A stretch of 64,000 bases of DNA, from the sequence record MT446390.1; one strand, written 5' to 3'. Positions within the stretch are counted from its first letter, which is position 1. Every line of letters starts with the position of its first letter. Below are positions 2,749 to 62,892 of the stretch, one piece after another. Source of the DNA: Escherichia phage TH12. The translations under genes were made by a program, and so were the position numbers. Under the pieces are notes generated by a model. That model had not been told where the DNA came from. It was given only the letters and a program-made list of their open reading frames with translations, and did no database searches.

Positions 2749-2754
2749 GGTTAT

Positions 2755-3597: not shown

Positions 3598-3896
3598 TGG
3601 CTCAAATCCTATCAGGCTTTGGAACTCATTATGAAGCATCTAGACGCATAACTGAAAGCAATCCTTTTGGCCTTGTTCCGAAGCACAAGAAAATTCAAAG
3701 CCTTGATGACTTTGAGAACCGCCTATGGGCCCTCTTTAATGAGTACAAGGCATATCTGAAAGAAGACGCTGACGATTGTCTTGAAGAAGATGAGATTGCG
3801 TATTACGAACAACGCCTTGAACAGCTCAAGAACTTCCATCAGGTTCGTGACGAAGTATCTAAAGCAGTTAAAAAGTTAATTCCTTTCAAAGAGTAG
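3597..3896 (+). CDS. Hypothetical protein (99 aa)
   Basis: ATG overlapping upstream stop (TAATG); compact packing. Confidence 0.55.
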
Positions 3897-10134: not shown

Positions 10135-10135
10135 T

Positions 10136-10153
10136 AAGGGCCTTCGGGCCCTT
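10136..10153 (+). terminator. Hairpin terminator candidate (UUCG loop)
   Basis: aagggcc-ttcg-ggccctt; weak T-tract. Confidence 0.5.
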
Positions 10154-10181
10154 TAGGGGGTCAAAATATTTTTAAAAAGTA

Positions 10182-10210
10182 GTGTACATGTTTTTAGGAT
10201 ATGTTATTAT
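10182..10210 (+). promoter_or_regulatory. T4-type early promoter
   Basis: gtgtac 10182-10187, 17-bp spacer, tattat 10205-10210, followed by tatagacctatcaa element. Confidence 0.55.
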
Positions 10211-10249
10211 AGACCTATCAAAACGAAATGAGTAAATTTGGAGAATAAA

Positions 10250-11230
10250 ATGTTCAACGTTCAAATCAAAAAAGGTATCTATCGTAATAATGAAATCTCC
10301 GGTTCTTATGTTGCCACAAAGACATGGTTCCCAGCAAAGCTTAATCCTGAATGTTCCCACTTAGGTGACGGTAAAATTTTCGTTATGATTGATGGTTCTG
10401 AACGTGGAGTATGGGTCTTCAAATCAGACATCGTAATGGAAGGAGTTGAGACGACACCAGTTGCAGTTGTTGAAAGCACTGAAGATATGAAAACTCGTAT
10501 CAACAAACGCTTTAAAGTAATGAACATGATGACGAATGGCATTATCGATGGCAAAATTCGTTCACTCATTATTTCAGGTGCAGCTGGTATTGGTAAGACG
10601 TATTCTCTGGATAAAGCGCTTAATAATGCTAATGATAATGGTTTCATCAAATACAAAAGCATTAATGGTAAAATCTCTGGTATTGGCCTTTACGAACAAC
10701 TTTGGCTCAACCGTGATGCAGACAGCGTTCTCTTAATCGACGATGTTGATGTATTCTCGGATATGGATATCTTGAACCTTCTTAAAGCAGCATTAGATAC
10801 TGGTGATAAACGCAAAGTTTGCTGGAGCACTGCATCATCTTATCTTGATGATAAGGGTATCGATAAAGAATTTGAGTTTGAAGGTACTATTGTTTTCATT
10901 ACAAACGTTGATATCGATAAAGAGTTAGAACGCGGTTCGAAACTTGCTCCGCACCTTCAAGCTTTAGTATCTCGTTCAGTGTATCTCGACCTTGGAGTAC
11001 ACTCTAATGAAGAGATTATGGTTCGAGTTGAAGATGTAATATTATCTACTGACATGATGCAGAAACGTGGTCTGACGGATGCAGAAACGTATAAAGCATT
11101 GTCCTGGATGAAGGCTAACGTATCTCGTCTTCGCAATGTATCATTACGTACGGCTCTTTATGTAGCAGATTTTATTTCAACCGATAAAGATGGTTGGGAG
11201 GAAATCTCTGAAGTAACTTTACTGAAATAA
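10250..11230 (+). CDS. AAA+ ATPase-like protein
   Basis: Walker A ISGAAGIGKT, Walker B VLLIDDVD; 326 aa; track start 10238 is TTG. Confidence 0.7.
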   Translation: MFNVQIKKGIYRNNEISGSYVATKTWFPAKLNPECSHLGDGKIFVMIDGSERGVWVFKSDIVMEGVETTPVAVVESTEDMKTRINKRFKVMNMMTNGIIDGKIRSLIISGAAGIGKTYSLDKALNNANDNGFIKYKSINGKISGIGLYEQLWLNRDADSVLLIDDVDVFSDMDILNLLKAALDTGDKRKVCWSTASSYLDDKGIDKEFEFEGTIVFITNVDIDKELERGSKLAPHLQALVSRSVYLDLGVHSNEEIMVRVEDVILSTDMMQKRGLTDAETYKALSWMKANVSRLRNVSLRTALYVADFISTDKDGWEEISEVTLLK

Positions 11231-11362
11231 GCTTATAGGAAGTTCTGAGGTAAGCCATAAAGATGAATAATCATATGGCTTACCTCAAAGAAGGACACCA
11301 GGAACCTACTGAGGGCATAGAAATATTTAAAATAATGATGTACAAATCAAAGAGGATATGTT

Positions 11363-11650
11363 ATGGATTTTATGCAAAAAAATAAAGCCGCAGTCGAACT
11401 CTATGCTCATCGTATGGTTAGTTCTACAATGCAATATAGCGAGGAAGTTCGCCAGGACTCTTCCTTGAAAGGAAAAACTAAAGCCTTAATTACCTTAGAT
11501 CGTTTGCAAAAGAATGCCATAGAGATGCTCCAGTACGACAAGAGTGTATATAAGAAAGAACAGGAAGAGAAACTTAAATCTGAAAAGTTACAGAAAACCC
11601 CGAAGTCGGTTTGGTTCAGTGGAAAAAATACTGAAAAAAGTTTCTTTTAG
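11363..11650 (+). CDS. Hypothetical protein (95 aa)
   Basis: ATG after AGAGGA. Confidence 0.55.
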   Translation: MDFMQKNKAAVELYAHRMVSSTMQYSEEVRQDSSLKGKTKALITLDRLQKNAIEMLQYDKSVYKKEQEEKLKSEKLQKTPKSVWFSGKNTEKSFF

Positions 11651-11708
11651 TTGTTTACAAGGTCTATGGTTGTGTTATTATAGACCTATCAACTACTGGA
11701 GGTAAAAC

Positions 11709-12236
11709 ATGAACGCTAAAGATATTTTCAACCTGGTAAATTATAACGACGGTAAATTTAAATCTGAAGCACAGAGCAAGTTCTTTAATGACGTTGCTTA
11801 TGGTAACGAGATTACCGTGGATGGAGGTCAGATTTTCAAATCTCGCTGGAATTGGATTGCTATCATCGATTCAGTTGGAATTGTGGAAGTCTACAAAAAC
11901 ACTAACAAAAAACGTACATTATTCTGGTCTCGTGAAACTAACGAACAGTACAAAAAGGATAAAGCATCTCGTTTATCCAAAGTAACCCAGGAAGATATCG
12001 AGTTTATCAAGAAAGATATCGAGATGTACGAAAATTTAATAGCTGAAGACCAGGCAGTACTCGATAAGTTTGATGAAATTAAAGCTTCTCGTGAAATCCC
12101 TGACTTCATGAAAGAAACAGTAAACGAACGATACGCTCTCACTTCAGAACGTATTGCAAACTATACAAAACAGAAAGCAGAACGTATTAGTACTCTTCGG
12201 AAATTTGAAGAACGTTTAAAGACGGTTCACGCATAA
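11709..12236 (+). CDS. Hypothetical protein (175 aa)
   Basis: ATG after TGGAGG; early promoter upstream. Confidence 0.6.
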   Translation: MNAKDIFNLVNYNDGKFKSEAQSKFFNDVAYGNEITVDGGQIFKSRWNWIAIIDSVGIVEVYKNTNKKRTLFWSRETNEQYKKDKASRLSKVTQEDIEFIKKDIEMYENLIAEDQAVLDKFDEIKASREIPDFMKETVNERYALTSERIANYTKQKAERISTLRKFEERLKTVHA

Positions 12237-12298
12237 ACGCTTTACCCAAGGACGGGTTATAATGGTTTTGAGTTCCAATTCAATCTGAGGAAATAGTT

Positions 12299-13294
12299 AT
12301 GAGCATTATATCTGATGCGGTAAAACATGAAATTAACGGTTTATGTGCTTCACAGATTAAAGTGTGGTTTAAAGACCATAACGATCGCAGAGCACTTAAT
12401 TATGAGCAAATTGCTATCCAAGTTCATCAATTACTGACTAGTAAATTTGATTTTCATATGCCATCTGAAATCTATACTAATCTGCCACGAGCACTTATTA
12501 AAGCGTGTAAAGGTTATGGAAAATCAATGGCTGATGGAATCTTCAGCGCGCTGAATAAACTTAACGTTCTGTCGATGATTAACTCTAACAATATCCTGCG
12601 TAATCTAGGACGTACTGATTTGTTCGGACGTGAACAGTGTAAAATGCCTTTGAAATGGATTGTTGCTCATCTTAACGAGAACCAAACACGTTTTATGGCC
12701 GTAACAGCACGTTTACAAATGGGCTTAGATCGTCAGATGAACTTTAAAACTCATCCATGTTATTCAGGTTCAACAGACTTTTATAAATGCGAGCTTCAAA
12801 AGGTCGGTGGCAAAACTGTCTTAGTAGTTCGTGTAACGTTTGAAGGACGACGTCAAGGATATTTTGACATAATCGGCTCTGGTCTTAAACATTGTGGATT
12901 TATCAACGAAGTTGATATCAAGCGAGACAGCGTTGGATACCGTATTGGGTATGTTTGTACTCTTAAAGAAGAGATTTCAGGACCAGCACCAGGACTAAAA
13001 GACGTTAGATATAAAGACGAGCTCGTTGAAGAAATAAAAGAAGTTGAATATGATATCAACCAAGAAGATGCTCTTAAAGACCTTATTGACGAACTAAACC
13101 AAGACGTTATTCCGGTTCAGAAATTTGAATCAAAACATGCTGAGCAAATCAAATACTTTGAAGCTTTGATTAACGAACTTAATGTAACTATTCAACAGAC
13201 TGACGATGAAATCTCACGATTAGCAGGCTTAAATGGTAAAAATAAAACAGAACGAGCTAATCTTATTCAAGTAGTAAAACTTCTTAAGGAATGA
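12299..13294 (+). CDS. Hypothetical protein (331 aa) with C-terminal coiled-coil-like segment
   Basis: ATG after TGAGGA; heptad-like C-terminus. Confidence 0.65.
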   Translation: MSIISDAVKHEINGLCASQIKVWFKDHNDRRALNYEQIAIQVHQLLTSKFDFHMPSEIYTNLPRALIKACKGYGKSMADGIFSALNKLNVLSMINSNNILRNLGRTDLFGREQCKMPLKWIVAHLNENQTRFMAVTARLQMGLDRQMNFKTHPCYSGSTDFYKCELQKVGGKTVLVVRVTFEGRRQGYFDIIGSGLKHCGFINEVDIKRDSVGYRIGYVCTLKEEISGPAPGLKDVRYKDELVEEIKEVEYDINQEDALKDLIDELNQDVIPVQKFESKHAEQIKYFEALINELNVTIQQTDDEISRLAGLNGKNKTERANLIQVVKLLKE

Positions 13295-13323
13295 TGTACA
13301 ACCAAGGATGGTTGGAGTATAAT
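13295..13323 (+). promoter_or_regulatory. Early promoter with spacer stem-loop (caacc-AAGGAT-ggttg) abutting TATAAT
   Basis: tgtaca 13295-13300, spacer hairpin, tataat 13318-13323. Confidence 0.6.
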
Positions 13324-13349
13324 AAATTTTTCAACATGAGGAATATAAA

Positions 13350-14309
13350 ATGGCTTTTATTACACGTAGAGAACTTATCAAAGAATTTACCTCGAACGCA
13401 TATACTCCAGGACCTAATCCTATCCGTATGCCTGTAAAGACTCCTGAAGAGATTGAGGAAATCTGTTCGTATTATGGGATTACTTCTCGTATGTTTACTC
13501 AATTTGAATGTGTTACTAACACGCCCGTTAAAGAGTTCATTAAAAATGGTGAGTTCAGCCGTTTATTAGCCAAACAGAAACTTCGTAATTTTTGTATTGG
13601 CGGTTGTGGACAATATTTCGCTAAGCAGTTCCGGAATAACCTTAACAATCTGATGGCCATTGCTTCTCGTATTCGTCCTCAAGCAATTAACATGAAACAT
13701 TTGAAATATACTTACGATAAGTTAGAAATCATGGTTATCAGTGAGAACGAGTTCACTCTTACGTATAAACCTAAGAATGATAACGTTGCTCGTGTATTCC
13801 ACCAAGCGCTAGAAGTGTTAGGCGATAATATCCATGAGATTAAAGCAATTTATTCTCGTGAGCTTAATATTATCGACCCTATCAAGAATAAGGGCCATAT
13901 CGCTATCCAGGCTCGTGTATCTATTGGTAAAAAGGTTCCTGCGCCATGGTGGCACAAAGACTCTGAATACTATCAAAATCTTAAAAAGGAAAATGCAACG
14001 TTCGAAGGCAATATCACAGCAACACCAGTCGGTAATGCAGAGGTTCTAAGCGCATATTCTCCGACACAACCCGGTATGTTTAAAGGTTTGCCAAATGTGT
14101 GCAAACTGTCGGCAGTAAAACTAAATGTTTCTAATGACCTTCTTCCGGCCGAAGATTATCATTACAACCAAATCAAGGCTACTGTAGACCAACTGTCCGT
14201 TGAACTTGACAAAGCACAAGCTAAGCTTCGTGATGCTCAAAGTGTTGTAACGAATCTCCAGTTGCAGTACTCTAAACTTTTTAATGCAATGAATGCATTA
14301 AAATCATAA
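13350..14309 (+). CDS. Hypothetical protein (319 aa) with C-terminal coiled-coil-like segment
   Basis: ATG after TGAGGA; own promoter. Confidence 0.65.
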   Translation: MAFITRRELIKEFTSNAYTPGPNPIRMPVKTPEEIEEICSYYGITSRMFTQFECVTNTPVKEFIKNGEFSRLLAKQKLRNFCIGGCGQYFAKQFRNNLNNLMAIASRIRPQAINMKHLKYTYDKLEIMVISENEFTLTYKPKNDNVARVFHQALEVLGDNIHEIKAIYSRELNIIDPIKNKGHIAIQARVSIGKKVPAPWWHKDSEYYQNLKKENATFEGNITATPVGNAEVLSAYSPTQPGMFKGLPNVCKLSAVKLNVSNDLLPAEDYHYNQIKATVDQLSVELDKAQAKLRDAQSVVTNLQLQYSKLFNAMNALKS

Positions 14310-14313
14310 AACG

Positions 14314-14343
14314 GTTTACAACCAAGGATGGTTGGAGTATAAT
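14314..14343 (+). promoter_or_regulatory. Early promoter with spacer stem-loop (caacc-AAGGAT-ggttg) abutting TATAAT
   Basis: gtttac 14314-14319, tataat 14338-14343; 26-nt identical to 13298-13323 and 56460-56485. Confidence 0.6.
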
Positions 14344-14371
14344 GAATCTATCTTAACGAGAGGAAAATATT

Positions 14372-15322
14372 ATGACACGTTCACATTACATTGAATACTT
14401 TGCCGGTCTTATCGCTAACGTTCATGCCCAGCGCGCTGTTGGTGCACTAGGATTTGATGTTCCACACCGAGATGTAGTAAGTGGTATTCTTCGCGATTTT
14501 GGTACATACACAGGTCAAGAAAATCATATCTGTAAAGATACTCAGAATGCGTATTCTCATTCATTAGGGACACTGCTTCAATGGTTCAAACGTTCTCGTT
14601 TATTATCTTCTACTGTAGCTCGCGATAACATTAAAAACTTTATGAAACCGAGCTTTATTAAATCTGTGACATCTAAAACCGATTTGGTTGAATTCACTAT
14701 TGTTAATGATGTTAAAAAGACTCATTTGGCTGATTGGTTATCTACCATTCCTGAAACTAAATTCGCTGATAAATTTGCTTGTGAATTCAATAACCAAGTG
14801 AATATGCTTTTTAAACATTCTCGTAAATTATTCACGGGCGGTGATGGTCGTACAAATAAAGTTCATGTTAAAGATTGGGTTACTGCAGTATTCAAACCGA
14901 CCGGTAATGGTAACGCATCATTATCAATTGATATCCAGGTTCCTTATTACTACTCACGTAATCTCGGTACCATGAAAGCTGAAGAAATTAATAAGCATAA
15001 CAAAACCGTTCGTTCATTGTCTTATAAACTTATTACATTGTTAGAGACTATGGATGTTGTTGAAACGTTCGACGAATCCGAAGATAACGGTTCAATGTTA
15101 TACAGTTCTCGCACCCGAATTAAGCTGAAGAACCCTAACGAGTATAAACTTAAGACTATTAAAGAACCTAAAGTAGAAAAAGTTGACAACTTGAGCGAAG
15201 AACGTGAATATCTCAAATCTCGTCTGAAAGAAGTCGAAGCCCAGATTAAAGAACAGACTAAATCATTAAAAGCTCTGAATGCAAAAGCTGATGGTTTACG
15301 AAATGCTATTGAGGTTTTATAA
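14372..15322 (+). CDS. Hypothetical protein (316 aa) with C-terminal coiled-coil-like segment
   Basis: ATG after AGAGGA; C-terminus LKSRLKEVEAQIKEQTKSLKALNAKADGLRNAIEVL. Confidence 0.65.
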   Translation: MTRSHYIEYFAGLIANVHAQRAVGALGFDVPHRDVVSGILRDFGTYTGQENHICKDTQNAYSHSLGTLLQWFKRSRLLSSTVARDNIKNFMKPSFIKSVTSKTDLVEFTIVNDVKKTHLADWLSTIPETKFADKFACEFNNQVNMLFKHSRKLFTGGDGRTNKVHVKDWVTAVFKPTGNGNASLSIDIQVPYYYSRNLGTMKAEEINKHNKTVRSLSYKLITLLETMDVVETFDESEDNGSMLYSSRTRIKLKNPNEYKLKTIKEPKVEKVDNLSEEREYLKSRLKEVEAQIKEQTKSLKALNAKADGLRNAIEVL

Positions 15323-23872: not shown

Positions 23873-24430
23873 ATGACTGAACAAAAACCTAAAAATAACT
23901 ATGTGAATAATAAAGAGCTTCTCGCCGCTATAATCGAGTGGAAAAAGGAGCTCTTAAATAATAAAGACCCAAACAAAATTATTCGTCAGAATGATACCAT
24001 CGGTTTAGCAATTATGCTTATCGCCGAAGGCCTGTCCAAACGTTTCAACTTTTCAGGATATACCCAGTCTTGGAAGCAGGAGATGATTGCAGATGGGATT
24101 GAAGCCTCTATTAAGGGACTTCATAATTTCGACGAAACTAAGTACAATAACCCACATGCATACATAACTCGAGCTTGTTTTAATGCTTTTGTCCAACGTA
24201 TCAAAAAAGAACGTAAGGAAGTTGCAAAGAAATATAGTTACTTCGTTCATAATGTCTACGACAGTCATGACGATGATATGGTAGCGTTGGTAGATGAAAC
24301 GTTTATTCAAGACATCTACGATAAAATGACGCATTATGAAGAATCCGCTTATAAAGCTCCTGGGGCTGAAAAGAAGGAAGTTGTTAGCGATTCGCCTAGT
24401 TTGGATTTTTTATATGAGGATGACAATTGA
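23873..24430 (+). CDS. 55: Late-transcription sigma factor gp55
   Basis: [27 protein letters not shown]...[38 protein letters not shown] matches T4 gp55; 185 aa; track start 23855 is non-ATG. Confidence 0.95.
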
Positions 24431-24629
24431 TATCTCTAACTACTTAGAAGAACCTTTTGACGAAGCAATCCCTTATTTGGTAAAACTGTTGGGTCGAGAA
24501 TTTAAAATTAATTTTGACATCGACCCTTTGAACCCACATGACGTGTCATTTTCGATAAATGGGACTCCAGTTGAGTACGAGTTCTGTATTGAAGAGGACG
24601 GACGTTTTTATTTTAATTTAATGAGATAA
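24414..24629 (+). CDS. Hypothetical protein (71 aa)
   Basis: Internal ATG overlapping 55 3' end; start uncertain (24414 or 24420). Confidence 0.45.
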
Positions 24630-24630
24630 T

Positions 24631-24954
24631 ATGACTACCGAGATTATTGAAAATAAAGAAGCAGAAGATGCAGTAGCTAAAATGCTACAAGAAATCCAAA
24701 AGAAAAATGAAGCTGAAGCACGTAAAAAATCCGAAAAGATTCTTAAAAAGAATCGTTTTGAACTAAACCGTCTTTATGCTCATGCTCAAGAAGCAGCAAT
24801 TCAAAACAACTTCGAAGCTTACGAATATGCTATTAAGAAATCTCGGGATATTCTACGACAACCATATAATGAAAAGTTAATTAAAATCCAATGGGTTACT
24901 ACTCGTCAGGCTATTGAGGACATCATTAATGGCACTACTTCAAACAAAGTTTAA
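24631..24954 (+). CDS. Hypothetical protein (107 aa)
   Basis: ATG right after upstream stop. Confidence 0.55.
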   Translation: MTTEIIENKEAEDAVAKMLQEIQKKNEAEARKKSEKILKKNRFELNRLYAHAQEAAIQNNFEAYEYAIKKSRDILRQPYNEKLIKIQWVTTRQAIEDIINGTTSNKV

Positions 24955-25224
24955 ACGTCTGAATTTGAACGCAGGGTTCACCCTTAAATTGGGAGGTCCT
25001 CTTTGTGTTAAAATTTCTGAAAAGGAATATCACGACGGTTCTATTACAGAAATTTGTCCGCCTATTGTAAAGGCAGACCCAAAACAACTCGTGTGGGTTG
25101 ATTCATTTCAAGTTAAGAAATGGTGGAAACGATGATAACGTGGACAGGTGGCTAATGAAAGACGAACACCCGGATTTTTAAGCTTATGAATGACAAATAC
25201 GAAAAAGTTTAAGGGGTCATATGA

Positions 25225-25398
25225 ATGACGAATTTGACGGATTTTGATAAGATTAAATCTGACAAAAATGAGATGATACTTCAATTTGAAGCCGCTCGTA
25301 TTAAAGCAGAAAATGAAGGTACTATTACCCGCAAGAAAATCAAGTTCACGTCTAGTCGCGAACCTCTGTACGGTGTGTTAATTGGAAAGGAAGCCTAG
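25225..25398 (+). CDS. Small ORF (57 aa), uncertain
   Basis: ATG after AAGGGG; below track cutoff; ends inside terminator hairpin. Confidence 0.35.
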   Translation: MTNLTDFDKIKSDKNEMILQFEAARIKAENEGTITRKKIKFTSSREPLYGVLIGKEA

Positions 25399-25412
25399 TG
25401 CTTCCTTTTTTT
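25387..25412 (+). terminator. Intrinsic terminator
   Basis: aaggaagc-ctagt-gcttcctt followed by ttttt. Confidence 0.6.
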
Positions 25413-25459
25413 GCTTTATATTCTGGATGATAAAATGAACCAACTAATGAGGAAAACAT

Positions 25460-25603
25460 ATGATTATATTTTTAGGTGTGACCATATTGATATTAGCCTT
25501 CTATCTATTCACTAGGGCGTGCTGGATAGGTTTCTTTAGTGCCCCAGATGGATTAATTTCTGTGGTTTTATTTTGCATTGCGATAACGGCGTTAGACTTA
25601 TGA
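25460..25603 (+). CDS. Small membrane peptide (47 aa), uncertain
   Basis: ATG after TGAGGA; hydrophobic; stop overlaps gene 47 start (ATGA). Confidence 0.4.
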   Translation: MIIFLGVTILILAFYLFTRACWIGFFSAPDGLISVVLFCIAITALDL

Positions 25604-26619
25604 AAATTTTACATTTAGGTGACTTCCATATCGGCGTTAAACAGGACGACCCATGGGTTCAAGATATTCAACGGGATGGTATTCGTCAAGCAATTGAATA
25701 CTCTAAGAAACACGGTATTAAAACTTGGATTCAGTACGGTGATTGGTTTGACGTCCGTAAAGCAATTACACATCGTACGATGGAATTCAATCGTGAAATA
25801 GTTGATATGATTTCTAAGGCAGGCATTCACGTTCATGTCACGATAGGAAACCATGACATGGCGTTTAAGAATACAATAACACCTAACACTGTTTCTGAAT
25901 TGTTAACTCAATTTGAAAACTTTACTATTTACGAACATCCAACTACTGTAGATTTTGACGGATGTCTGATCGATATCGTTCCGTGGATGTGTGAAGAAAA
26001 TACAGGTGAAATCTTAGAGCACATCAAGACTTCTTCCGCAGCGTACTGTGTTGGGCACTGGGAACTGAACGGCTTTTATTTCTATAAAGGAATGAAGTCT
26101 CATGGGCTTGAACCTGATTTCTTAAAGACCTATAAACAAGTCTGGTCTGGCCACTTCCACACAATCTCTGAAGCTGCTAACGTCAAATATATTGGGACAC
26201 CATGGACCCTTACTGCAGGTGATGAGAACGATCCGCGAGGATTCTGGGTATTTGACACTGTTGTTGAACGTATGGAATTTATTCCCAATGAAACGACATG
26301 GCATCGACGAATCACTTATCCATTTAAAGGCAAAATCAATTATTCTGATTATACTAATCTAGCCGTACGTGTTATAGTATCAGAAATTGATTCAGAGTTG
26401 ACTAAATTTGAATCTGAACTTGAAAAAGTAGTTCACTCTCTTCGTATGGTTTCTAAAGTTGATAACAGTGTTGAATCTGATGACGACCAGGAAATCGAGA
26501 TTAAATCACTTCAAGATATCATTAAAGAATATATTGACGCGATTCCGGATATCTCAGACGAAGACAGAGAAGCGCTGGTCAAATATTCCAACGAACTTTA
26601 TATTGAGGCAACACAATGA
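25600..26619 (+). CDS. 47: Mre11-like recombination nuclease subunit gp47
   Basis: MKILHLGDFH...GDWFDV...GNHDM phosphoesterase motifs; 339 aa as in T4. Confidence 0.95.
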   Translation: MKILHLGDFHIGVKQDDPWVQDIQRDGIRQAIEYSKKHGIKTWIQYGDWFDVRKAITHRTMEFNREIVDMISKAGIHVHVTIGNHDMAFKNTITPNTVSELLTQFENFTIYEHPTTVDFDGCLIDIVPWMCEENTGEILEHIKTSSAAYCVGHWELNGFYFYKGMKSHGLEPDFLKTYKQVWSGHFHTISEAANVKYIGTPWTLTAGDENDPRGFWVFDTVVERMEFIPNETTWHRRITYPFKGKINYSDYTNLAVRVIVSEIDSELTKFESELEKVVHSLRMVSKVDNSVESDDDQEIEIKSLQDIIKEYIDAIPDISDEDREALVKYSNELYIEATQ

Positions 26620-34992: not shown

Positions 34993-35628
34993 ATGAAAAC
35001 TACACCAATCACTATCGCTATTGACGCAATCGTAAAACAAGCTTCATCTCTTGCCACTATGGCTAAAGTAATTAGTCAAAACTCTGCCCGATATAATGCT
35101 ATTCTTGAAACTCTTCGTCGCCCTGGACTGAGTAATTATGAAAGCCGAGTAATTATTACAGGTGTTGGTAAGAACGCTAATATCGCAACTAAAGCTTCCG
35201 AGACTTTTGCTTCACTAGGTATTCCTAGCATGTATTTGAACACCGGGCATTATTCTCATGGCGACGCAGGGTTTATTGCACCTAATGATGTATTAGTTCA
35301 CATCAGTCGTTCTGGTAAGACTGAAGAAATGATAGGTGTTGCTAAACATCTTCGTATGATTCGTCCTCAGGTTAAACAGATTCTGTTACATTGTAACCCT
35401 GACATTCCGCAAGAATACGAAGCTCTTTTTGATTATACGTTCTGTACAGGCATCGCGGTAGAGGTTGATGAGAATTCTCTGGCTCCGACCATGTCCACTA
35501 CATTGTTGTTAGCGCTTATCGATACGTTTGCTATCAACCTTTCGTCTGAACGTGGATTTACCTCTAATGACTTCCTTAAGTTCCACCCTGGTGGTGCACT
35601 AGGTGCCATGTTACGAGGCGAACAATGA
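34993..35628 (+). CDS. SIS-domain sugar-phosphate isomerase (arabinose-5-phosphate isomerase-like)
   Basis: SIS motifs ITGVGKNANIATK, SRSGKTEE, HPGGALG; 211 aa. Confidence 0.8.
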   Translation: MKTTPITIAIDAIVKQASSLATMAKVISQNSARYNAILETLRRPGLSNYESRVIITGVGKNANIATKASETFASLGIPSMYLNTGHYSHGDAGFIAPNDVLVHISRSGKTEEMIGVAKHLRMIRPQVKQILLHCNPDIPQEYEALFDYTFCTGIAVEVDENSLAPTMSTTLLLALIDTFAINLSSERGFTSNDFLKFHPGGALGAMLRGEQ

Positions 35629-35768
35629 AAGCAATAACAATAGGACTTTTACTATTGATGCTTGTCATGACTATCTACTGGAGCTTAACGGCTCCAGTAA
35701 TGATTCCGACTCTTATAATCGGATGGATTATGATTGGACTACAAACAAAGTATGAATGCTTTAACTAG
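35625..35768 (+). CDS. Small membrane peptide (47 aa), uncertain
   Basis: ATGA overlap with SIS gene stop; hydrophobic; below track cutoff. Confidence 0.4.
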   Translation: MKAITIGLLLLMLVMTIYWSLTAPVMIPTLIIGWIMIGLQTKYECFN

Positions 35769-35809
35769 AATAGTGTACAATACACCTACTTACCAATGAG
35801 GACCACAAC

Positions 35810-37495
35810 ATGAAAAAAGCTGTTATTCTTGGTGCTGGACTGGCAACTCGTTTGTATCCAATAACGCACCATATTCCTAAGGTGCTTGTTAACTATAAAC
35901 AAGACACTATTCTGAGCAATTTGTATACAATTTATTCTGACCTTGGTGCAGATGAAATTATTGTAGTAGTTCATTCAAAATTTGTTGAAACTGTTCGAGC
36001 TTATTGTGAGCAAGAAGGGTTCAATGTGACTATTCGTACAGTTGATGAAGCGTATGGTTCTGCTTATGCTCTTGCTAAATTATACAAAGATTTAGATGGC
36101 CATAATGTAATTGTTAACTGGTGTGATATTATTCCTGATTTTGGTTCATGGTCTTGGAATGTTAACGCAATCTATGTTAAGGGTGACGAATGTCGATATA
36201 ATTTCGACGGTGAAAATATCACTAGCGTAGGTTCAACAGGTGGTAATGTTGTAGGAATTTATCAGTTCAAAGACTGGGAATTCTATATGGGTTCTACTGA
36301 TGAGGAAATTCATGAATACTGCAAAGGACGTGATTTCGTAGAATTCCTTTACGGCAGCGCATTCAATAAATCAGAGCTTATGAATCTAATTGATTTAGGT
36401 GATATGCCTAAACTTGAAAAAGCTCATGAAGTTCGTGAACTTAATCGTAGTTTTAATGCAGTTGAAATTGGTGAAGAAACTGTAACTAAATTCGCATTAA
36501 CCGAACAGGGCCGAGCTCTTCAGAAAGATGAGATTTCATGGTATCTTAAAGTGAAATCAGATTCAGTTCCTCAGTTAGTTTCTGTTAATGAAAATAACTT
36601 TGAAATGGAACGCATTAAAGGTAAGCCGGCATTTGAATATATTAAATCCAAATCGAGTCTTGCTCGTCCACAAATTGTTGATGCAATTTTAGATGCACTG
36701 AAATTCAGCACAGACACTTATTTTGTAAGTCCTGAAACTGTTCGTCGTGATTTCACTAAAGAATTCTATACGAAAGTTATTGATCGTTGTGAAAGCATTC
36801 AACCATTGATTGATTCATTTGGTAAAATCACACATGTGAACTACACTAAGATTGGACGTCTGAAGCCAATGCTGAAACAAGCTTTAGAACACCTTATTCG
36901 TTATCATAACCGTTCTCAGGGACAGTACTCTGTTATTCATGGTGACCCGAACTTCAGTAATACTATGATTACTGATAACGGCGAAGTCAAGTTTATCGAC
37001 CCTCGTGGATATTTTGGCGAAACCAAGATTTACGGGCCAAAATTGTACGATGAAGCTAAAGTGCTTTATGCTGTTTCAGGTTATGATGAATTCAATGCTA
37101 ATCCGACCTGGGGACAGTTTACTATTGATGAAACAACTTGTAATGTGACTATTAACATCAATCCATTAATTTACAAATATGGAAAGATGAGTTCGTTTAA
37201 CGAGTATCATCATTTGGCGGTGGCAATTATCTGGATTGCATTAGGTGGTTATTTCAAGAATAATCCACTTAAAGCGGTAGCCGCATATTATAAAGGTATG
37301 GAACTTCTGACTAAGCAATTACGCAACATGGGCCGTGTACTTCAAGACGGCTCTATTAGTTATGACGTAGCAGAACCTGTAACGGCTACTCTGATTACAA
37401 AAAATCCTGGTAAATGGGTACTAACTGATAAAGAAACTGGTGTTTCCTATCGTCCAATCGGTGGCGATATCACTCATCAATGGGAACGAATCTAA
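35810..37495 (+). CDS. Bifunctional sugar-1-phosphate nucleotidyltransferase / APH-fold sugar kinase
   Basis: N-term AVILGAGLATRLYPITHHIPKVLV (NDP-sugar pyrophosphorylase G-loop); C-term VIHGDPNFSNTMI...FIDPRG (APH/choline-kinase-type motifs); 561 aa. Confidence 0.75.
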   Translation: MKKAVILGAGLATRLYPITHHIPKVLVNYKQDTILSNLYTIYSDLGADEIIVVVHSKFVETVRAYCEQEGFNVTIRTVDEAYGSAYALAKLYKDLDGHNVIVNWCDIIPDFGSWSWNVNAIYVKGDECRYNFDGENITSVGSTGGNVVGIYQFKDWEFYMGSTDEEIHEYCKGRDFVEFLYGSAFNKSELMNLIDLGDMPKLEKAHEVRELNRSFNAVEIGEETVTKFALTEQGRALQKDEISWYLKVKSDSVPQLVSVNENNFEMERIKGKPAFEYIKSKSSLARPQIVDAILDALKFSTDTYFVSPETVRRDFTKEFYTKVIDRCESIQPLIDSFGKITHVNYTKIGRLKPMLKQALEHLIRYHNRSQGQYSVIHGDPNFSNTMITDNGEVKFIDPRGYFGETKIYGPKLYDEAKVLYAVSGYDEFNANPTWGQFTIDETTCNVTININPLIYKYGKMSSFNEYHHLAVAIIWIALGGYFKNNPLKAVAAYYKGMELLTKQLRNMGRVLQDGSISYDVAEPVTATLITKNPGKWVLTDKETGVSYRPIGGDITHQWERI

Positions 37496-37881
37496 TGCAC
37501 CGTGTAGAAAACATGCTTAATCTTTGTTTTGATGTCGATGATTGTATAACAGAGTGGAATAACAATCGTGATTACGTGAACTTCAAACCAGACGTCGAAA
37601 TGGTGTCTGCCATTAATGCCCTGTATGATGCAGGGCATACCATAACGCTTTACACTGCTCGTGGTATGAAGTCAGTAGGTCCTGGTCGTATAGCAATTGA
37701 CATTCTCCCAAGTCTGATTCAGAACTTGGCAAACATTGGCTTGAAGTACCATAATTTGCTAACACATAAACCAGTATATGATTGGATTATCGACGACAAA
37801 GCTATGCGTCCTGACGAATTCAAAGCTCTTATGAATAAAGGCGAATTCGAAACATTTAAATCGTATAAACCGAATCTATAA
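37495..37881 (+). CDS. HAD-superfamily phosphatase-like protein
   Basis: Motif I FDVDDCIT near N-terminus; TAATG overlap with upstream stop; 128 aa. Confidence 0.65.
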   Translation: MHRVENMLNLCFDVDDCITEWNNNRDYVNFKPDVEMVSAINALYDAGHTITLYTARGMKSVGPGRIAIDILPSLIQNLANIGLKYHNLLTHKPVYDWIIDDKAMRPDEFKALMNKGEFETFKSYKPNL

Positions 37882-37939
37882 TAATTTAAGTAAGACCTGC
37901 AAAAAAACCATCGCATCAATTAACGCGAGATGCAAAAAA

Positions 37940-39100
37940 ATGAATACTTTTAAAATCGGAACGAATTTTGATTTAGCTCTTCTTGATAAAATCGTAGAGC
38001 TCAATAAAACCTATCCTAATAGCTTGATAAACGAAGTATATGGCTCTACAAGAGAAATGGCTTTTGTAGCAGCCAGACCTGATTTTAGGCTTCCTGACGT
38101 TGACAAAAAGATGTTAGAAGACTACGTTAAACGTTGTAACGAATTAGGTATTTGCTTTAACTATACACTCAACACGATAAATCCTGGTTCAAAAAGAGAA
38201 CTAGTTGAGTGGAAGAAGAAAGCTATTCAGGATTATGTTCAGTATCTTTGGTCAATAGGCGTATGGCGTATTACTATCGCTAACCCTGTTGTTATGGAAA
38301 TTGTTCGTGAAGTCAATAAAGATATTGAGATTGAAGTTTCAACAATTCTACATGTCGATGCGGTAACTCAAATCAAATACTTACATGACCAATATAACAT
38401 CAAAAAGGTCTGTTGCGGAATTCATAAGAACCGTTCAGTTTCTTTCCTGAAGCGTGCAGCAGAGTTTTGCAATAAGAACAATATAATATTTGAAGTTCTT
38501 GTAAATGAGTTCTGTTCTAATGCTGGTAAAGGGTATACAACACATTGTAGTTATCGTGACTCTTGCTATATTTTCCATAGTACTGATGTTACAGCTGATG
38601 ATGCTAAATCCTTAAATGGATATCCAATGCAACACTGCATTAAAGCTCGTGATACAGACCCATTTAACTGGTTGAGAACTCGTTTTGTTCGTCCTCAAGA
38701 TTTGAAACTTTATAATGATATTGGTATCACTCAATTCAAAGTTTCAGGACGTACAGGTAGCACAGACTACATTTTGAAAGTTCTTGAAGCATACGCTTCT
38801 GAAAAGTTTGAAGGTAATTTGTTAGAACTGTGGAAGCCTTTAGAGACTATTTTCACTCTTGAAAATGAGACTGAGTTTTCACATACAGTAAATATTGAAA
38901 CCTCTTTGTTAGATGGCTTTTTAGAAAAAAGGTGGTTCAGACATCCAGATTTTGATTGTGCTAATGAAATCTGTGGGTCAACGTGTACATATTGTGAAAG
39001 GTATTATAAACGTCAATTATCTAAAAACGGGTTAGCAGAAAACTCCATATCTATTATTGATATAACTAACTCTGATGACGCTTTGAGGTACCCGGAATGA
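37940..39100 (+). CDS. Cys-rich enzyme, tentatively peptidase-U32-like (Fe-S?)
   Basis: 386 aa; Cys clusters VCCG, EFCSNAGKGYTTHCSYRDSCY, DCANEICGSTCTYC; family call is weak by-eye resemblance only. Confidence 0.6.
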   Translation: MNTFKIGTNFDLALLDKIVELNKTYPNSLINEVYGSTREMAFVAARPDFRLPDVDKKMLEDYVKRCNELGICFNYTLNTINPGSKRELVEWKKKAIQDYVQYLWSIGVWRITIANPVVMEIVREVNKDIEIEVSTILHVDAVTQIKYLHDQYNIKKVCCGIHKNRSVSFLKRAAEFCNKNNIIFEVLVNEFCSNAGKGYTTHCSYRDSCYIFHSTDVTADDAKSLNGYPMQHCIKARDTDPFNWLRTRFVRPQDLKLYNDIGITQFKVSGRTGSTDYILKVLEAYASEKFEGNLLELWKPLETIFTLENETEFSHTVNIETSLLDGFLEKRWFRHPDFDCANEICGSTCTYCERYYKRQLSKNGLAENSISIIDITNSDDALRYPE

Positions 39101-39336
39101 TTTCTAGAAAAAGTTTTAATTATAAACTTAACGAAGAGATTTTGACTATGAAACTGAACACTAACGAACAAATTCTTAAAAAGGCCCTTATGGGCCTGTT
39201 TGAAACCAAAGCGGCTAAAGTGATTAAAGAACCTGTTCAATTGGAATACTACACTGATGCATTCCTTCATAGTGTTCTTGGAAGTATAGATTCTGAAGCT
39301 TTACGTTATATCAACATTGTCAAGAAATTCAAATAA
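39097..39336 (+). CDS. Hypothetical protein (79 aa)
   Basis: ATGA overlap; GAGGT upstream. Confidence 0.5.
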   Translation: MISRKSFNYKLNEEILTMKLNTNEQILKKALMGLFETKAAKVIKEPVQLEYYTDAFLHSVLGSIDSEALRYINIVKKFK

Positions 39337-39378
39337 GCTTTATGAATTGAGTATATAATAAATTGTATTGAGGTAAAT

Positions 39379-40095
39379 ATGGGAAAACATAACACAATGA
39401 AATATATCAAAGCCGCAGATTTTCAAACCGCATTTAAAGCAGTCAATCGTGAAATTTTAGAAAACCCCGAATTCGTAACTGATTCTCGTATTGGACGTTG
39501 TAATGAAATTGGGTCTATGACAGTAGTTGTTGACACTCCATCATCATTCAAAATGACCGACCCACGTATTAACCGCATCTCTTATGAATATGCCGAAGAC
39601 TTCTGGAAGTTTATGATTTCTGGTGGTACCAACGCAGAAGAAGCGTTTAAGGCATATCCTAATGTCGCTAAATTTATTTCTAAACCAAAATCAGATGTTT
39701 TGCCGGCGAACTTCAACACTTTCTATGGTCCTCGCATTGCGGCCCAATTACCAACTCTTCTAAAAGAACTTAAAGAAAAACCTAACTCTCGAAGAGTTGT
39801 GTTCCAAATTCTAGAAAGTTCTGATCAGGCTTTGCTTGATTCGGACGAAACACTTGAATATCCATGTACTGACTCAGTAACTTATTATATTCGTGATGGT
39901 AAGCTTTATACCCACTGTCATATGCGTTCTCAGAACTGTGCTGTTGTTATGCAGTTGGATTTTTATCTCCAAGGAAAATTACTTCATTATATCGCTAACG
40001 AATGTGGTGTAGAAGTTGGTGATTATACTCATACCATGGTAAGTGCCCATGTGTTTGAACGTGATTTTGATTATGTTAAAGGATTCCTTGACTAA
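39379..40095 (+). CDS. 42: dCMP hydroxymethylase homolog (thymidylate-synthase superfamily), divergent
   Basis: KPNSRRVVFQIL vs T4 NPDSRRGIMIY; PCTDSVTYYIRDGK...HMRSQN vs T4 MCTNTVQYLIRDKK...NMRSND; SAHVFERDF vs SLHVYSRHF; 238 aa. Confidence 0.75.
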   Translation: MGKHNTMKYIKAADFQTAFKAVNREILENPEFVTDSRIGRCNEIGSMTVVVDTPSSFKMTDPRINRISYEYAEDFWKFMISGGTNAEEAFKAYPNVAKFISKPKSDVLPANFNTFYGPRIAAQLPTLLKELKEKPNSRRVVFQILESSDQALLDSDETLEYPCTDSVTYYIRDGKLYTHCHMRSQNCAVVMQLDFYLQGKLLHYIANECGVEVGDYTHTMVSAHVFERDFDYVKGFLD

Positions 40096-40994
40096 TGGCT
40101 ATTTTCCGCGTACCAATCTTGAGTATGCGGTCTTATGAAACTGGACAGTATGCTATCCTTAAGGATGGCAACTTCCAACTTCATTTGCACCGTGCTAATC
40201 CGGGTGATGTGATTACATATCCACGTAATGCATCTGATATTAAAGAATGCGAACGTCTTTTCCCAGAATTTAAGTTTGTTCCATTATGGTATAAAGATAA
40301 CGCGTATAACACTCGTAAATATTTCTGGACTGAAAATGAATTTGTGGTTGATTCATTAATTGATTATTATGATTGTGATTTTCTAATCACAGATATCACT
40401 GGTTATGGCGGCGCTTTTGATGTGGAATTCAATTTCAATATCACTGCAGACCCTAATAAACCACGTTTTTATATTGATGAATTCTTAAAAACCGACATGT
40501 TGTCTGTTAATCGTTCACTTCAAACTACTGTGTTGAATGAACGTCAAAAAGGAGTGCTGGTTAACGCAGGTGCAGATGGTAATAAGATTATCGTAACGCA
40601 GAAAGTTATACGTCCTTCCATCATGCAGCGTCTTGTAGGTGATTTGGCTCCTATTCATCTAGATGGTATTTTTCATCCATTTCGAATTAGTGACCCATGT
40701 TATCGTTTTGAACAAGTGGTTGAATGTGCAATTCAATTAGGTCAACCGCTTTATATAACCGATCCAAATAATAGCTTCGACAGAAATAAGTATCCTGAAG
40801 AAGCGCTGATTCGAATTTTTAAACCAACTAAAACTGAGTACTATCAAATTCTTAAAGGACGTCCGAAAATTCAATATTTCGAAAATCCTGAAGAAGTATT
40901 CCATCCAGGTCTTGGTGAGTTCATCTACTTTAATGCTTTAATTTCTTCGCCGTATAATATACCTAAATACGAAGATGTCGTAATCGAGGAATAA
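40095..40994 (+). CDS. Hypothetical protein (299 aa) at the T4 beta-gt position
   Basis: TAATG overlap with 42 homolog; no family recognised. Confidence 0.6.
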   Translation: MAIFRVPILSMRSYETGQYAILKDGNFQLHLHRANPGDVITYPRNASDIKECERLFPEFKFVPLWYKDNAYNTRKYFWTENEFVVDSLIDYYDCDFLITDITGYGGAFDVEFNFNITADPNKPRFYIDEFLKTDMLSVNRSLQTTVLNERQKGVLVNAGADGNKIIVTQKVIRPSIMQRLVGDLAPIHLDGIFHPFRISDPCYRFEQVVECAIQLGQPLYITDPNNSFDRNKYPEEALIRIFKPTKTEYYQILKGRPKIQYFENPEEVFHPGLGEFIYFNALISSPYNIPKYEDVVIEE

Positions 40995-40995
40995 A

Positions 40996-41544
40996 ATGGC
41001 TAAAATTATTTTAGTAGACGGCCCAGATAATGCTGGTAAAACAACTTTCATTAATGACATAATGGAAATTAGTGAAAGATATGTAAAGATTGATTTCCCT
41101 AAACGAACAGTTGATGGACGTTTCGATGTTAAGTCTCGAAATGAAGTTGGTTGTTTCGAAACGATGTTGAATTATTTAGACCCTACTAAGATTTATCTGT
41201 TAGACCGTGGATATATTAGTAACTGGGTTTATGGACGTATTCGACAAGATGCGGACTCGGTTCTTGACGTTTATGAACAGGACTATGTTCGTCTTTGCCA
41301 AAACCATGATGTGTTCACAATTATTTTAACACGTAACGAAATGACTGAAAGTTTTGAAGACGACCTTATTACTTTGTCTTCATTCGGTTTTAATACAGTC
41401 GTTTCACATTTTGAAGAGTTTGCAATTCATAACAAAATCCAAACATATCAATTACTTAATCATGATGGTGCTAACAAAGTTATAGGATTTAATGCAAGCG
41501 AACGTAATTGTTTGATTACAGAAATCATCAAATGGGCTCGTTAA
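40996..41544 (+). CDS. P-loop kinase, thymidylate/dNMP-kinase-like
   Basis: Walker A ILVDGPDNAGKTT; LLDRGYISNWVYGR resembles Tmk DR(Y/H) region; 182 aa. Confidence 0.6.
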   Translation: MAKIILVDGPDNAGKTTFINDIMEISERYVKIDFPKRTVDGRFDVKSRNEVGCFETMLNYLDPTKIYLLDRGYISNWVYGRIRQDADSVLDVYEQDYVRLCQNHDVFTIILTRNEMTESFEDDLITLSSFGFNTVVSHFEEFAIHNKIQTYQLLNHDGANKVIGFNASERNCLITEIIKWAR

Positions 41545-61791: not shown

Positions 61792-62892
61792 ATGAAAGTT
61801 ATGTTTATCCCATCTCGCGCAGTCCCATTTAACCCAGAACGTGTACAAGGTGGTCTTGAAGCAGTACATTTAAATGTGTTGAAATATCTTGTGTCCATCG
61901 GTGCTGATATTGATTATATCGGCTTTGATAATGACACATTTGGTGATTGGAAGGTTAATCATCATCCTGTTGGTCATCTGACTAAATTCAGTCTAGGTAT
62001 GAGTTATACTATGGCTCGTAAGATTGTTGAACTAGCCGGCATCCATGAATACGATTTCGTTGTTACTATGGAACCGACTAAACTAACCGTTCAGGCAATT
62101 AAAGACGCAGGTCTCTCTAAAGTTCATAAGAATTTTATGGCAACACCATTTGAACCGGTATCTCGTGGCATTGTTCAAATTTGGGACCAGACTATTCAAA
62201 TTCATAAGAACGGTGGTAAGAGTTATGCTCCTACTAAAGCCTTCCGTGAATTTGAACGTAAATATTGTTATATGACTTCAGGTCTGACTGACAAAATTGA
62301 TTATGATTATTGGCGAGCAAATCCGTTGTTTGAAGCCGAAGATTATCCGGTTATTTGTTTGAATGAGAAACCTGAAGTTCTTCCGGCGACTGATCTGATT
62401 ATTAGTGCACAACGTTATGACACTAAAATGCGTCGTACTGATGTTGCTCTTGAAGCGATTAAAGCACTAGGCGAAAATGGTGCAGGATACTGTCCTAGTA
62501 AATGGGCACCACCGGCTAAGTATCCTGTTATTATTGATGCTCCACACAGTGAAATCATGGAACGTCTTAAAACAGCTAAAGCACTTATTAATACGTGTCC
62601 TGACACAGGTACGGTAGAGAATAGTTCTATTGAAGCCATCTCTAAAGGTGTCCCTGTAATCCAGTTAGTTTTTAAGGATTATCCTCATGCGACATTTGAA
62701 TATGACCCAGATACTGTGCGTGTAGAAATTGATTCCTCTACTCCTAAGAAAGAAGTAGTTGCGCTTTACACAAAAGCTGTATTAGAATTCACTGACACAT
62801 ACGAAGCTCGAGTTAAACGCGCTGAAGCAGTGTGGAAGAAGTATAATCGAGATGCAGTTGTTGCGATGTGGGATAAAATCTTCACAGCGTAA
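61792..62892 (+). CDS. Candidate GT-B-fold glycosyltransferase (possible DNA glycosyltransferase)
   Basis: 366 aa; C-terminal TGTVENSSIEAISKGVPVIQ resembles GT-B nucleotide-sugar-binding E-x7-E region; fold not verified. Confidence 0.6.
   Translation: MKVMFIPSRAVPFNPERVQGGLEAVHLNVLKYLVSIGADIDYIGFDNDTFGDWKVNHHPVGHLTKFSLGMSYTMARKIVELAGIHEYDFVVTMEPTKLTVQAIKDAGLSKVHKNFMATPFEPVSRGIVQIWDQTIQIHKNGGKSYAPTKAFREFERKYCYMTSGLTDKIDYDYWRANPLFEAEDYPVICLNEKPEVLPATDLIISAQRYDTKMRRTDVALEAIKALGENGAGYCPSKWAPPAKYPVIIDAPHSEIMERLKTAKALINTCPDTGTVENSSIEAISKGVPVIQLVFKDYPHATFEYDPDTVRVEIDSSTPKKEVVALYTKAVLEFTDTYEARVKRAEAVWKKYNRDAVVAMWDKIFTA

Follow-up and report, generated by a model that had tools for sequence, protein, structure and literature searches.

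The region studied here lies in a stretch of 64,000 nucleotides of Escherichia phage TH12 (sequence record MT446390.1), which we call the window. The region occupies positions 25136-25603, between the small ORFs that follow gene 55 and gene 47. All its elements are on the plus strand. They are, in order, a spacer, an ortholog of T4 a-gt.2, a hairpin that resembles an intrinsic terminator, a site that resembles a MotA-dependent middle promoter, a Shine-Dalgarno sequence and an ortholog of T4 gene 47.1, whose end overlaps the start of gene 47. An initial annotation, made without database searches, had described a 57-aa ORF, a terminator, a 47-aa hydrophobic ORF and an ATGA overlap with gene 47. 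Inspection of the sequence and of the ORF list finds each of them where it had been placed.

A nucleotide search with positions 24400-26000 returned Escherichia phage CCU7 at 99.5% identity and about 150 Mosigvirus (RB69-like) genomes at approximately 97% identity; coverage of this interval exceeds 80% in only four records. The source genome is a Mosigvirus, i.e., a T-even phage of the RB69-like kind. Elsewhere in the window, five ORFs of approximately 320 aa (9145-15322) were suspected to be paralogues and were found to be unrelated to one another.

The last of the post-55 ORFs (24929..25135, plus strand) is the ortholog of a-gt.3. It is 69% identical to T4 a-gt.3 (E 2e-28), matches phrog_1648, and forms the left edge of a mosaic patch that is described below. 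The spacer that follows it (25136..25224) contains degenerate copies of the 5' end of a-gt.2, which are out of frame, and the Shine-Dalgarno sequence of a-gt.2. Two mini-ORFs can be read in the spacer, MKDEHPDF and MNDKYEKV, each closed by a stop codon. A 14-nt direct repeat (TATGAATGACAAAT / TATGAATGACGAAT) is present in two copies 35 nt apart, and a weak tblastn match to residues 5-10 of T4 a-gt.2 falls at 25155-25172. JS98 matches the spacer at 92% identity, while almost nothing of it can be aligned in RB69.

The 57-aa ORF at 25225..25398 is the ortholog of a-gt.2 according to Pfam, phrog and T4 homology. Its product belongs to Pfam family PF17588 (DUF5486; E 2.5e-18, 66.1 bits versus a gathering cutoff of 27) and matches phrog_2140 (E 3e-28). 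At the protein level it is 57% identical to T4, 91% identical to the Gaprivervirus UPEC01 and about 52-54% identical to typical Mosigvirus alleles. The nucleotide sequence is only 65% identical to that of RB69 a-gt.2; in this respect the TH12 allele is Dhakavirus/Gaprivervirus-like, at 88-91%. The T4 gene (NP_049675) shares the homologous core, also stands after a-gt.3, and likewise has a hairpin at its end with a MotA box behind it. In contrast to T4, the N-terminus is recast in TH12: the 'KDEHP' start is left as an out-of-frame remnant of 8 codons (25155-25181), and the frame restarts at 25225. The a-gt.2 protein of T4 has been detected by mass spectrometry (PMC9697503 supplement). Our literature search found no functional study of a-gt.2 or of gp47.1.

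The annotated gene order in T4 is 55, a-gt.5, a-gt.4, a-gt.3, a-gt.2, mobB, a-gt, 47.1, 47, 46.2, 46.1, 46. The order in TH12 is that of T4 minus mobB and a-gt. The stop of a-gt.3 and the start of gene 47 are 464 bp apart in TH12 and 2459 bp apart in T4, because mobB and a-gt are present in T4. The synteny comparison thus finds these two genes missing and the neighbouring genes kept. By tblastn in all six frames of the 64-kb window, we found no homologue of T4 a-gt (best E 2.4), T4 b-gt (best E 4.8) or mobB (best E 0.29). The ORF listing for 25136-25603 contains no ORF long enough for a-gt on either strand. These searches bear out the initial annotation in that the alpha-glucosyltransferase is absent from its T4 slot, and a proper search uncovered no glucosyltransferase homologue in the window that would contradict it. 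The same annotation had also regarded the slot as replaced by small ORFs. This part does not stand, as both ORFs are conserved T4 neighbours of a-gt, namely a-gt.2 and 47.1. Therefore, nothing has replaced a-gt; its conserved neighbours now abut. The minus strand of the region carries ORFs of 58, 35 and 25 aa, and all homologues and the codon-position pattern are on the plus strand. No Rfam family matched 24800-25900 at E values up to 1.

The lack of glucosyltransferase genes has a counterpart elsewhere in the window. An RB69-type arabinosyl-5-hydroxycytosine gene cluster was located by tblastn and Pfam on the plus strand at 34993..41544, in the interval between gene 43 and uvsX, where T4 has genes 42 and b-gt. 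According to tblastn, the RB69 set is complete (p055, p052:53, p051, p050, p048, p046:47, p045 and ORF003c), with 96-100% protein identity. Within the cluster, tblastn places p055 (arabinose-5-P isomerase) at 34993-35628, p052:53 (kinase/uridylyltransferase, one ORF of 561 aa) at 35810-37495, p051 at 37480-37881, p050 at 37940-39100, p048 (ThyA-like) at 39379-40095, p046:47 (glycosyltransferase, one ORF of 299 aa) at 40095-40994, and p045 at 40996-41544, all on the plus strand. By the assignments in PMC13326640, the products of the cluster are an arabinose-5-P isomerase, a kinase/uridylyltransferase, a phosphatase, a U32-like protein, a ThyA-like 5hodCMP synthase, arabinosyltransferase 1 and a nucleotide kinase. 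The Pfam families found in it are SIS, NTP_transferase, Peptidase_U32 and Thymidylat_synt. The homologue of RB69 ORF003c, a second arabinosyltransferase with the GT-B fold, lies apart from the cluster on the same strand (61792..62892; 99.5% identity over all 366 aa); its function is taken from PMC6024577 and PMC13326640.

RB69 is known to have no homologue of a-gt, b-gt or ba-gt and to carry arabose in place of glucose (Thomas 2018, PMC6024577). The modified base of RB69 is arabinosylated 5-hydroxycytosine, which is made by the ThyA homologue gp48, and the other genes have been assigned as well (Lee 2026, PMC13326640): gp48 is the 5hodCMP synthase, gp46:47 and gp3 are GT-B arabinosyltransferases, and gp55, gp52:53 and gp51 serve UDP-arabinose synthesis (PMC13326640). 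TH12 resembles RB69 both in having neither a-gt nor b-gt and in its gene set for arabinosyl-5-hydroxycytosine. The absence of both glucosyltransferases together with the full arabinosylation set argues that glucosylation in TH12 has indeed been replaced by the RB69-type modification, as already published, and the glucosyltransferase would be missing because an RB69-like phage uses an arabinose-based DNA modification instead. The loss or replacement of glucosylation that was suspected from the empty slot is thereby upheld. The arabinosylated base has been shown in virion DNA of RB69 only (PMC13326640); in TH12 it is predicted from the gene set.

The end of a-gt.2 is built into a hairpin (25384..25412, plus strand) with an 11-bp stem, a CUAGU loop and a run of T's. 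Positions 25384-25394 pair with 25400-25410, the stem runs into the T-tract, and the loop includes the a-gt.2 stop codon. By its sequence, the structure has the form of an intrinsic terminator, a GC-rich 11-bp stem-loop with a tract of 7 T's. A terminator scan found 6 sites in 4 kb versus 2.2 +/- 1.4 expected, and this hairpin has the longest stem among them. Its folding energy is modest taken alone (-12.9 kcal/mol, z = -2.3; 8 of 200 shuffled sequences fold equally well). A hairpin occupies the same position, with other stem sequences, in RB69, SA79RD, JS98, UPEC01, T4, IME523, CHI14, CF1, Roth67, KARL-1 and phiAS4. In every relative examined, including phages of Klebsiella, Acinetobacter and Aeromonas, a GC-rich hairpin, often with a UUCG loop, stands in front of 47.1 or 47. 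A consensus fold of 11 hairpin regions by RNAalifold came out weak, as stems of differing length had been aligned out of register by MAFFT; we relied on the individual folds instead.

Directly behind the hairpin is a candidate middle promoter (25410..25436, plus strand), recognized by consensus match, enrichment and conservation. It consists of a MotA box, TTTGCTTTA, at 25410-25418, a 12-bp spacer and a -10 element TAAAAT at 25431-25436. The consensus of middle promoters is (a/t)(a/t)(a/t)TGCTTtA at a distance of 12 +/- 1 bp from TAtaaT (Hinton 2010, PMC2988021), and the sequence of the TH12 site is a perfect match to it. The pattern of MotA box and -10 element occurs 17 times in the window versus 3.7 expected, and none of 100 shuffles reaches 17. 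Both the box and the -10 element are invariant in the alignment of TH12, Mizar, UPEC01, SA79RD and RB69. The initial annotation had overlooked this site between the terminator and 47.1.

The candidate promoter corresponds in sequence to T4 PmobB (P-alpha-gt.1), where the a-gt.2 hairpin is likewise followed at once by the TGCTTTATA box, a 12-bp spacer and TAAAAT. The mapped start of PmobB, 38682, sits 6 nt past TAAAAT. By analogy, transcription in TH12 is predicted to start near 25442-25443, giving a leader of approximately 17 nt with the Shine-Dalgarno sequence GAGG. The two promoters differ in what they serve: in T4, PmobB transcribes mobB and a-gt from a start 3 nt ahead of the mobB ATG, whereas its TH12 counterpart would drive 47.1 and 47. 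The PmobB-like module of TH12 includes the Shine-Dalgarno sequence and the ATG of 47.1.

The arrangement suggests a mechanism in which transcription from upstream would end, or the RNA would be stabilised, at the hairpin that holds the a-gt.2 stop codon, and a new transcript would begin near 25442 from a MotA/AsiA-dependent middle promoter immediately after the hairpin. It is possible, though the less probable reading, that the hairpin is not a terminator and mainly acts as a stabiliser of RNA 3' ends or a barrier to processing, so that 47.1 and 47 are expressed largely by read-through from early promoters upstream. The equivalent hairpins of T4 are stems with CUUCGG-type tetraloops, several of which lack a long uninterrupted U-run; the 47.1 RNA of T4 was classed as early (PMC9697503 supplement); and middle RNAs come in part from extended early transcripts (PMC2988021). 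However, the TH12 stem is followed by, and partly built of, seven consecutive T's, which is the classical form of a terminator, and a promoter immediately behind the hairpin is what would be expected if upstream transcription stops there.

The gene that the putative promoter would serve first is the ortholog of 47.1 (25460..25603, plus strand), which encodes a predicted two-helix membrane peptide of 47 aa and is assigned by T4 homology and phrog_6693. By tblastn it is 74% identical to T4 gp47.1 over 46 aa (E 4e-20), and it matches phrog_6693 over profile positions 1-47 of 47 (E 1.2e-26). In T4, JS98 and JS10, gp47.1 is annotated as a "hypothetical predicted membrane protein". The peptide has a GRAVY of +1.95, with hydropathy peaks at residues 1-17 and 30-45. 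Its AlphaFold2 model, built from a 3-sequence alignment (pLDDT 73), has helices at 2-27 and 31-44. Hydropathy and the model fit a membrane hairpin of two helices. T4 gp47.1 has the same length of 46-47 aa and two predicted hydrophobic helices, and its gene likewise lies directly upstream of gene 47 with a 4-nt ATGA overlap. The genes differ in their surroundings: in T4, 47.1 follows a-gt and has a mapped P47 start inside it, while in TH12 it follows a-gt.2 and the PmobB-like promoter.

Intact copies of 46-47 codons with the ATGA overlap are present in Tequatro-, Dhaka-, Gapriver-, Moon-, Winkler- and Kanagawavirus, and the 47.1/47 overlap is seen in T4, JS98, UPEC01, CF1, CHI14 and IME523. Pairwise dN/dS across the six genera is 0.07-0.32. 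Differences fall mostly on third codon positions (569), followed by first (302) and second (150) positions. Synonymous sites are saturated, and the core FTRACWIGFFS(T/A)PDG is nearly invariant. The low dN/dS and the near-invariant core argue that the peptide sequence itself is selected, and 47.1 is evidently a genuine gene under purifying selection. The small hydrophobic ORF noticed at first sight has thus proved to be real, conserved and tied to gene 47, as indicated by dN/dS, phrog_6693 and the ATGA overlap across genera. Since the overlap of 4 nt between 47.1 and 47 is also present in T4, the connection of the putative membrane peptide with gene 47 is unrelated to the loss of a-gt.

The gene was found in 601 phage records, and gene 47 in 2371. 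A Pfam search with 47.1 gave no family match. A word-indexed search of 5.8 billion proteins returned only the ESh27 ortholog, and an exhaustive phmmer search of 1.84 billion representatives returned a single 50%-identity cluster; therefore, there is no remote homologue to suggest a function. The family appears to be confined to T-even-type phages of enterobacteria. The peptide seems to be dispensable, because RB69 and most Mosigviruses are without exactly this ORF.

Gene 47 (25600..26619, plus strand) encodes the Mre11/SbcD-like nuclease subunit (Pfam Metallophos), and its ATG is inside the ATGA overlap. A Shine-Dalgarno sequence, GAGG, is located at 25449..25452 on the plus strand and serves 47.1 according to the anti-SD duplex and the alignment. 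The predicted anti-SD duplex is -6.3 kcal/mol at the 47.1 start versus -1.7 kcal/mol at the gene 47 start in TH12. The same relation holds in all seven of the seven phages with 47.1, where the values are -6.1 to -9.3 kcal/mol for 47.1 and -1.7 to -3.0 kcal/mol for gene 47. In RB69 and SA79RD, which are without 47.1, the gene 47 start itself has -6.3 kcal/mol. Alignment of the a-gt.2-47 junction with RB69, whose flanks are 97% identical, demonstrates that the 47.1 ORF is absent exactly, from ATG to ATG, while the terminator, the MotA box, the -10 element and the Shine-Dalgarno sequence are all retained. Gene 47 of RB69 is thereby placed right behind this Shine-Dalgarno sequence, and its start codon is the ATG used by 47.1 in TH12; the a-gt.2 allele of RB69 is also a different one. 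The 5' ends of 47.1 and 47 resemble each other over 16 nt. This could be a remnant of duplication or have served as a deletion substrate, but so short a similarity cannot be told from chance.

In sequence, 47.1 and 47 have the marks of a coupled pair, i.e., an ATGA stop/start overlap and a downstream gene without its own Shine-Dalgarno sequence. We infer that gene 47 of TH12 is probably translated mainly by termination-reinitiation after 47.1. Ribosomes would load at the strong GAGG Shine-Dalgarno sequence, translate the predicted two-helix membrane peptide of 47.1 and, at the UGA of AUGA, reinitiate on gene 47. If reinitiation occurs in this way, 47.1 would be both a small protein and a translational entry point for gp47. 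Coupling may nevertheless be non-essential in TH12. The mapped P47 start of T4 (36576) lies 9 nt inside 47.1, so T4 makes gene 47 transcripts that are unable to encode 47.1, and coupling is therefore not the sole route to gp47 in T4.

If 47.1 delivers ribosomes to gene 47, one could regard it as a mere leader ORF with a functionless peptide. Such a view would agree with the lack of a Shine-Dalgarno sequence of gene 47 behind 47.1, with the RB69-type phages that dispense with the ORF yet keep the same Shine-Dalgarno sequence, with the T4 proteome, in which the 47.1 protein was not detected (PMC9697503 supplement), and with the single 50%-identity cluster among the 1.84 billion representatives. 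We nevertheless consider this unlikely, as a pure leader would not conserve amino acids. The dN/dS values over six genera, the near-invariant core and the fixed length of 46-47 aa speak against it.

Taken together, it is very likely that the region is a normal junction between the small post-55 genes and the 47-46 recombination-nuclease operon, without the mobB/a-gt cassette, and with expression by the hairpin, middle promoter and coupled translation proposed above. The feature as such is already known: a-gt.2 and 47.1 are T4 genes, the promoter is of the PmobB type, and arabinosylation instead of glucosylation is of the RB69 type.

One aspect of the region is specific to a few phages. In blastn against RB69, 97% identity extends to 25135 and resumes from 25599, and the middle can be aligned only partly; therefore, the limits given in the initial annotation coincide with a mosaic patch. 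Identities of the separate segments, at the nucleotide level, vary accordingly. The a-gt.3 segment is 98% identical to RB69 and 61-64% to UPEC01 and JS98, whereas the spacer and a-gt.2 are 85-92% identical to JS98/UPEC01 and 65% to RB69. The terminator and promoter segment is about 90% identical to RB69, JS98 and UPEC01 alike. The 47.1 segment is roughly equidistant from T4, JS98 and UPEC01 (72-76% to each), and gene 47 is 96% identical to RB69 in this comparison and 97.6% in blastn from 25599 onward. The whole patch is common only to CCU7 (98.9%), ESh27 (97.2%) and Mizar (94.2%). A small Mosigvirus subgroup thus combines an a-gt.2 allele of the Dhakavirus kind with a 47.1 allele of its own, which is ordinary T-even mosaicism. 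The presence of this patch, with its retained 47.1, in TH12 and about three relatives is the sole mildly new point of our analysis.

The order a-gt.3, a-gt.2, 47.1, 47, with neither a-gt nor mobB, is identical in the Dhakaviruses JS98 (NC_010105) and JS10 (NC_012741), whose records already annotate a-gt.2, 47.1 and 47 without a-gt. Their hairpin, MotA box, -10 element and Shine-Dalgarno sequence form the same module as in TH12. Only a segment of about 460 bp in TH12 resembles the JS98 type; the surrounding genome is that of a Mosigvirus (97% to RB69), not of a Dhakavirus. Synteny was compared across T4, RB69, JS98, UPEC01 and Mizar, and UPEC01 also has the order without a-gt. Beyond these phages, the layout without a-gt is found in Mosig-, Dhaka-, Gapriver-, Moon-, Winkler-, Kanagawa- and Karamvirus and in Acinetobacter and Aeromonas relatives. 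Klebsiella phage Roth67 has an a-gt that is 66% identical to that of T4, directly upstream of 47 and without 47.1, and KARL-1, phiAS4 and Pet-CM3-4 have neither a-gt nor 47.1. The a-gt slot therefore appears to be a plastic site.

Such a site could be taken for the scene of a recent event, namely deletion of a-gt (with mobB) in the TH12 lineage by recombination between the hairpin-plus-MotA-box modules that flank the T4 cassette. The modules are indeed similar (GGAGCTTCGGCTCC..TGCTTTATA before mobB and AGGGCTTCGGCCCT..AGCTTTATA before 47.1), and the a-gt of Roth67, at 66% identity to that of T4 in the same slot, implies that a-gt at this site is old. We find the scenario improbable. The layout without a-gt is common to many genera and is therefore neither recent nor private to TH12. 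The sequence past the MotA box matches the upstream (PmobB) module of T4, not the product expected from recombination of the two T4 modules, and tblastn found no remnants of an a-gt pseudogene in the spacer.

The proposal that gp47.1 functions as a partner of the gp46/gp47 Mre11-Rad50-like nuclease, for example in tethering or timing it at the place on the inner membrane to which injected or replicating DNA is bound, is very unlikely; if it were true, lineages such as RB69 would have lost this layer of control, and the invariant stop/start linkage across six genera would mean stoichiometric co-synthesis and not merely ribosome delivery.

The finding matters little beyond correct annotation. 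The interval between 55 and 47 without a-gt is the common state among T-even relatives, and the loss of glucosylation in TH12 would be the switch to arabinosyl-5-hydroxycytosine already known from the RB69 type. In many GenBank records, 47.1 is missing or called wrongly. The phages that have 47.1 (TH12, CCU7, ESh27 and Mizar) and RB69, which is otherwise 97% identical, provide a natural contrast for the role of the peptide and for the dependence of gene 47 translation on it.

Compared with RB69, the stretch 25136-25598 is a mosaic patch whose breakpoints coincide precisely with the stop of a-gt.3 on one side and the start of gene 47 on the other. Of about 150 Mosigvirus records, only those of CCU7, ESh27 and Mizar, and in part that of TH58, have this patch. 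The a-gt.2 part of the patch resembles Dhakavirus and Gaprivervirus sequences (88-92%), and the 47.1 allele is about equidistant from its counterparts in T4, JS98 and UPEC01 (72-76% to each). The patch therefore combines at least two histories.

Between a-gt.3 and a-gt.2, the spacer (25136-25224) contains out-of-frame, degenerate copies of the a-gt.2 5' end. One is a plus-strand mini-ORF, MKDEHPDF-stop (25155-25181), that matches the N-terminus of T4 a-gt.2; another plus-strand mini-ORF within the spacer reads MNDKYEKV-stop. The spacer also carries a 14-nt repeat, TATGAATGACAAAT / TATGAATGACGAAT, spaced 35 nt. The UPEC01 spacer has one unit fewer. The copies look like scars of slippage or recombination that recast the a-gt.2 N-terminus.

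Another similarity, of 16 nt and 81%, was observed between the 5' ends of 47.1 (25463-25478, codons 2-6, IIFLGV) and gene 47 (25606-25621, codons 3-7, ILHLGD). It may be due to chance, may be a trace of 5'-end duplication, or may have provided the microhomology for the exact deletion of 47.1 in RB69.

The occupancy of the slot ahead of gene 47 differs among phages. In Klebsiella phage Roth67, gene 47 is immediately preceded by an a-gt gene (234-1430 of the Roth67 locus) that is 66% identical to that of T4; the presence of a-gt at this site is therefore not limited to Tequatrovirus. The Roth67 a-gt is followed by a hairpin, a promoter-like box and a Shine-Dalgarno sequence, without 47.1. In T4, the mapped start of the middle promoter P47 (3966-4012 of the T4 locus) is at 36576, i.e., locus position 4012, 9 nt inside 47.1, and its -10 element TATAAT overlaps the 47.1 ATG. 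Thus P47 transcripts cannot encode 47.1, and initiation of gene 47 on them would need to be uncoupled.

In phage records 47.1 is frequently mis-called or left without annotation. A 36-aa ORF of another frame is annotated in its place in UPEC01 (2710-2820 of the locus), and only the endonuclease is annotated at the IME523 match (2501-2644), as in many other records. Homologs of a-gt.2 are named “head maturation protease” in phrog_17354 and some records, a label that seems to be a propagated error. In the Mizar record, gene 47 (2675-3721 of its locus, 348 aa) begins at a TTG inside 47.1 (window counterpart 25573), 27 nt upstream of the ATG. We favour the ATG at 25600 (339 aa) because of the junctions in RB69 and T4 and the metallophosphatase motif MKILHLGDFH at the N-terminus.

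Patterns of a MotA box with a -10 element occur at 17 sites in the window versus 3.7 expected (4.6-fold enrichment), mostly on the coding (plus) strand (e.g., 28246, 35757, 40934, 50848 and 59866), and provide a list of candidate middle promoters in TH12. Those at 35208, 35757, 37062 and 40934 lie within or ahead of arabinosylation genes. Two such genes, split in the RB69 reference record as p052/p053 and p046/p047, are single uninterrupted plus-strand ORFs here (35810-37495, 561 aa, and 40095-40994, 299 aa, respectively). The RB69 splits are regarded as sequencing errors in published work (PMC6024577, PMC13326640), and the unbroken ORFs support this view.
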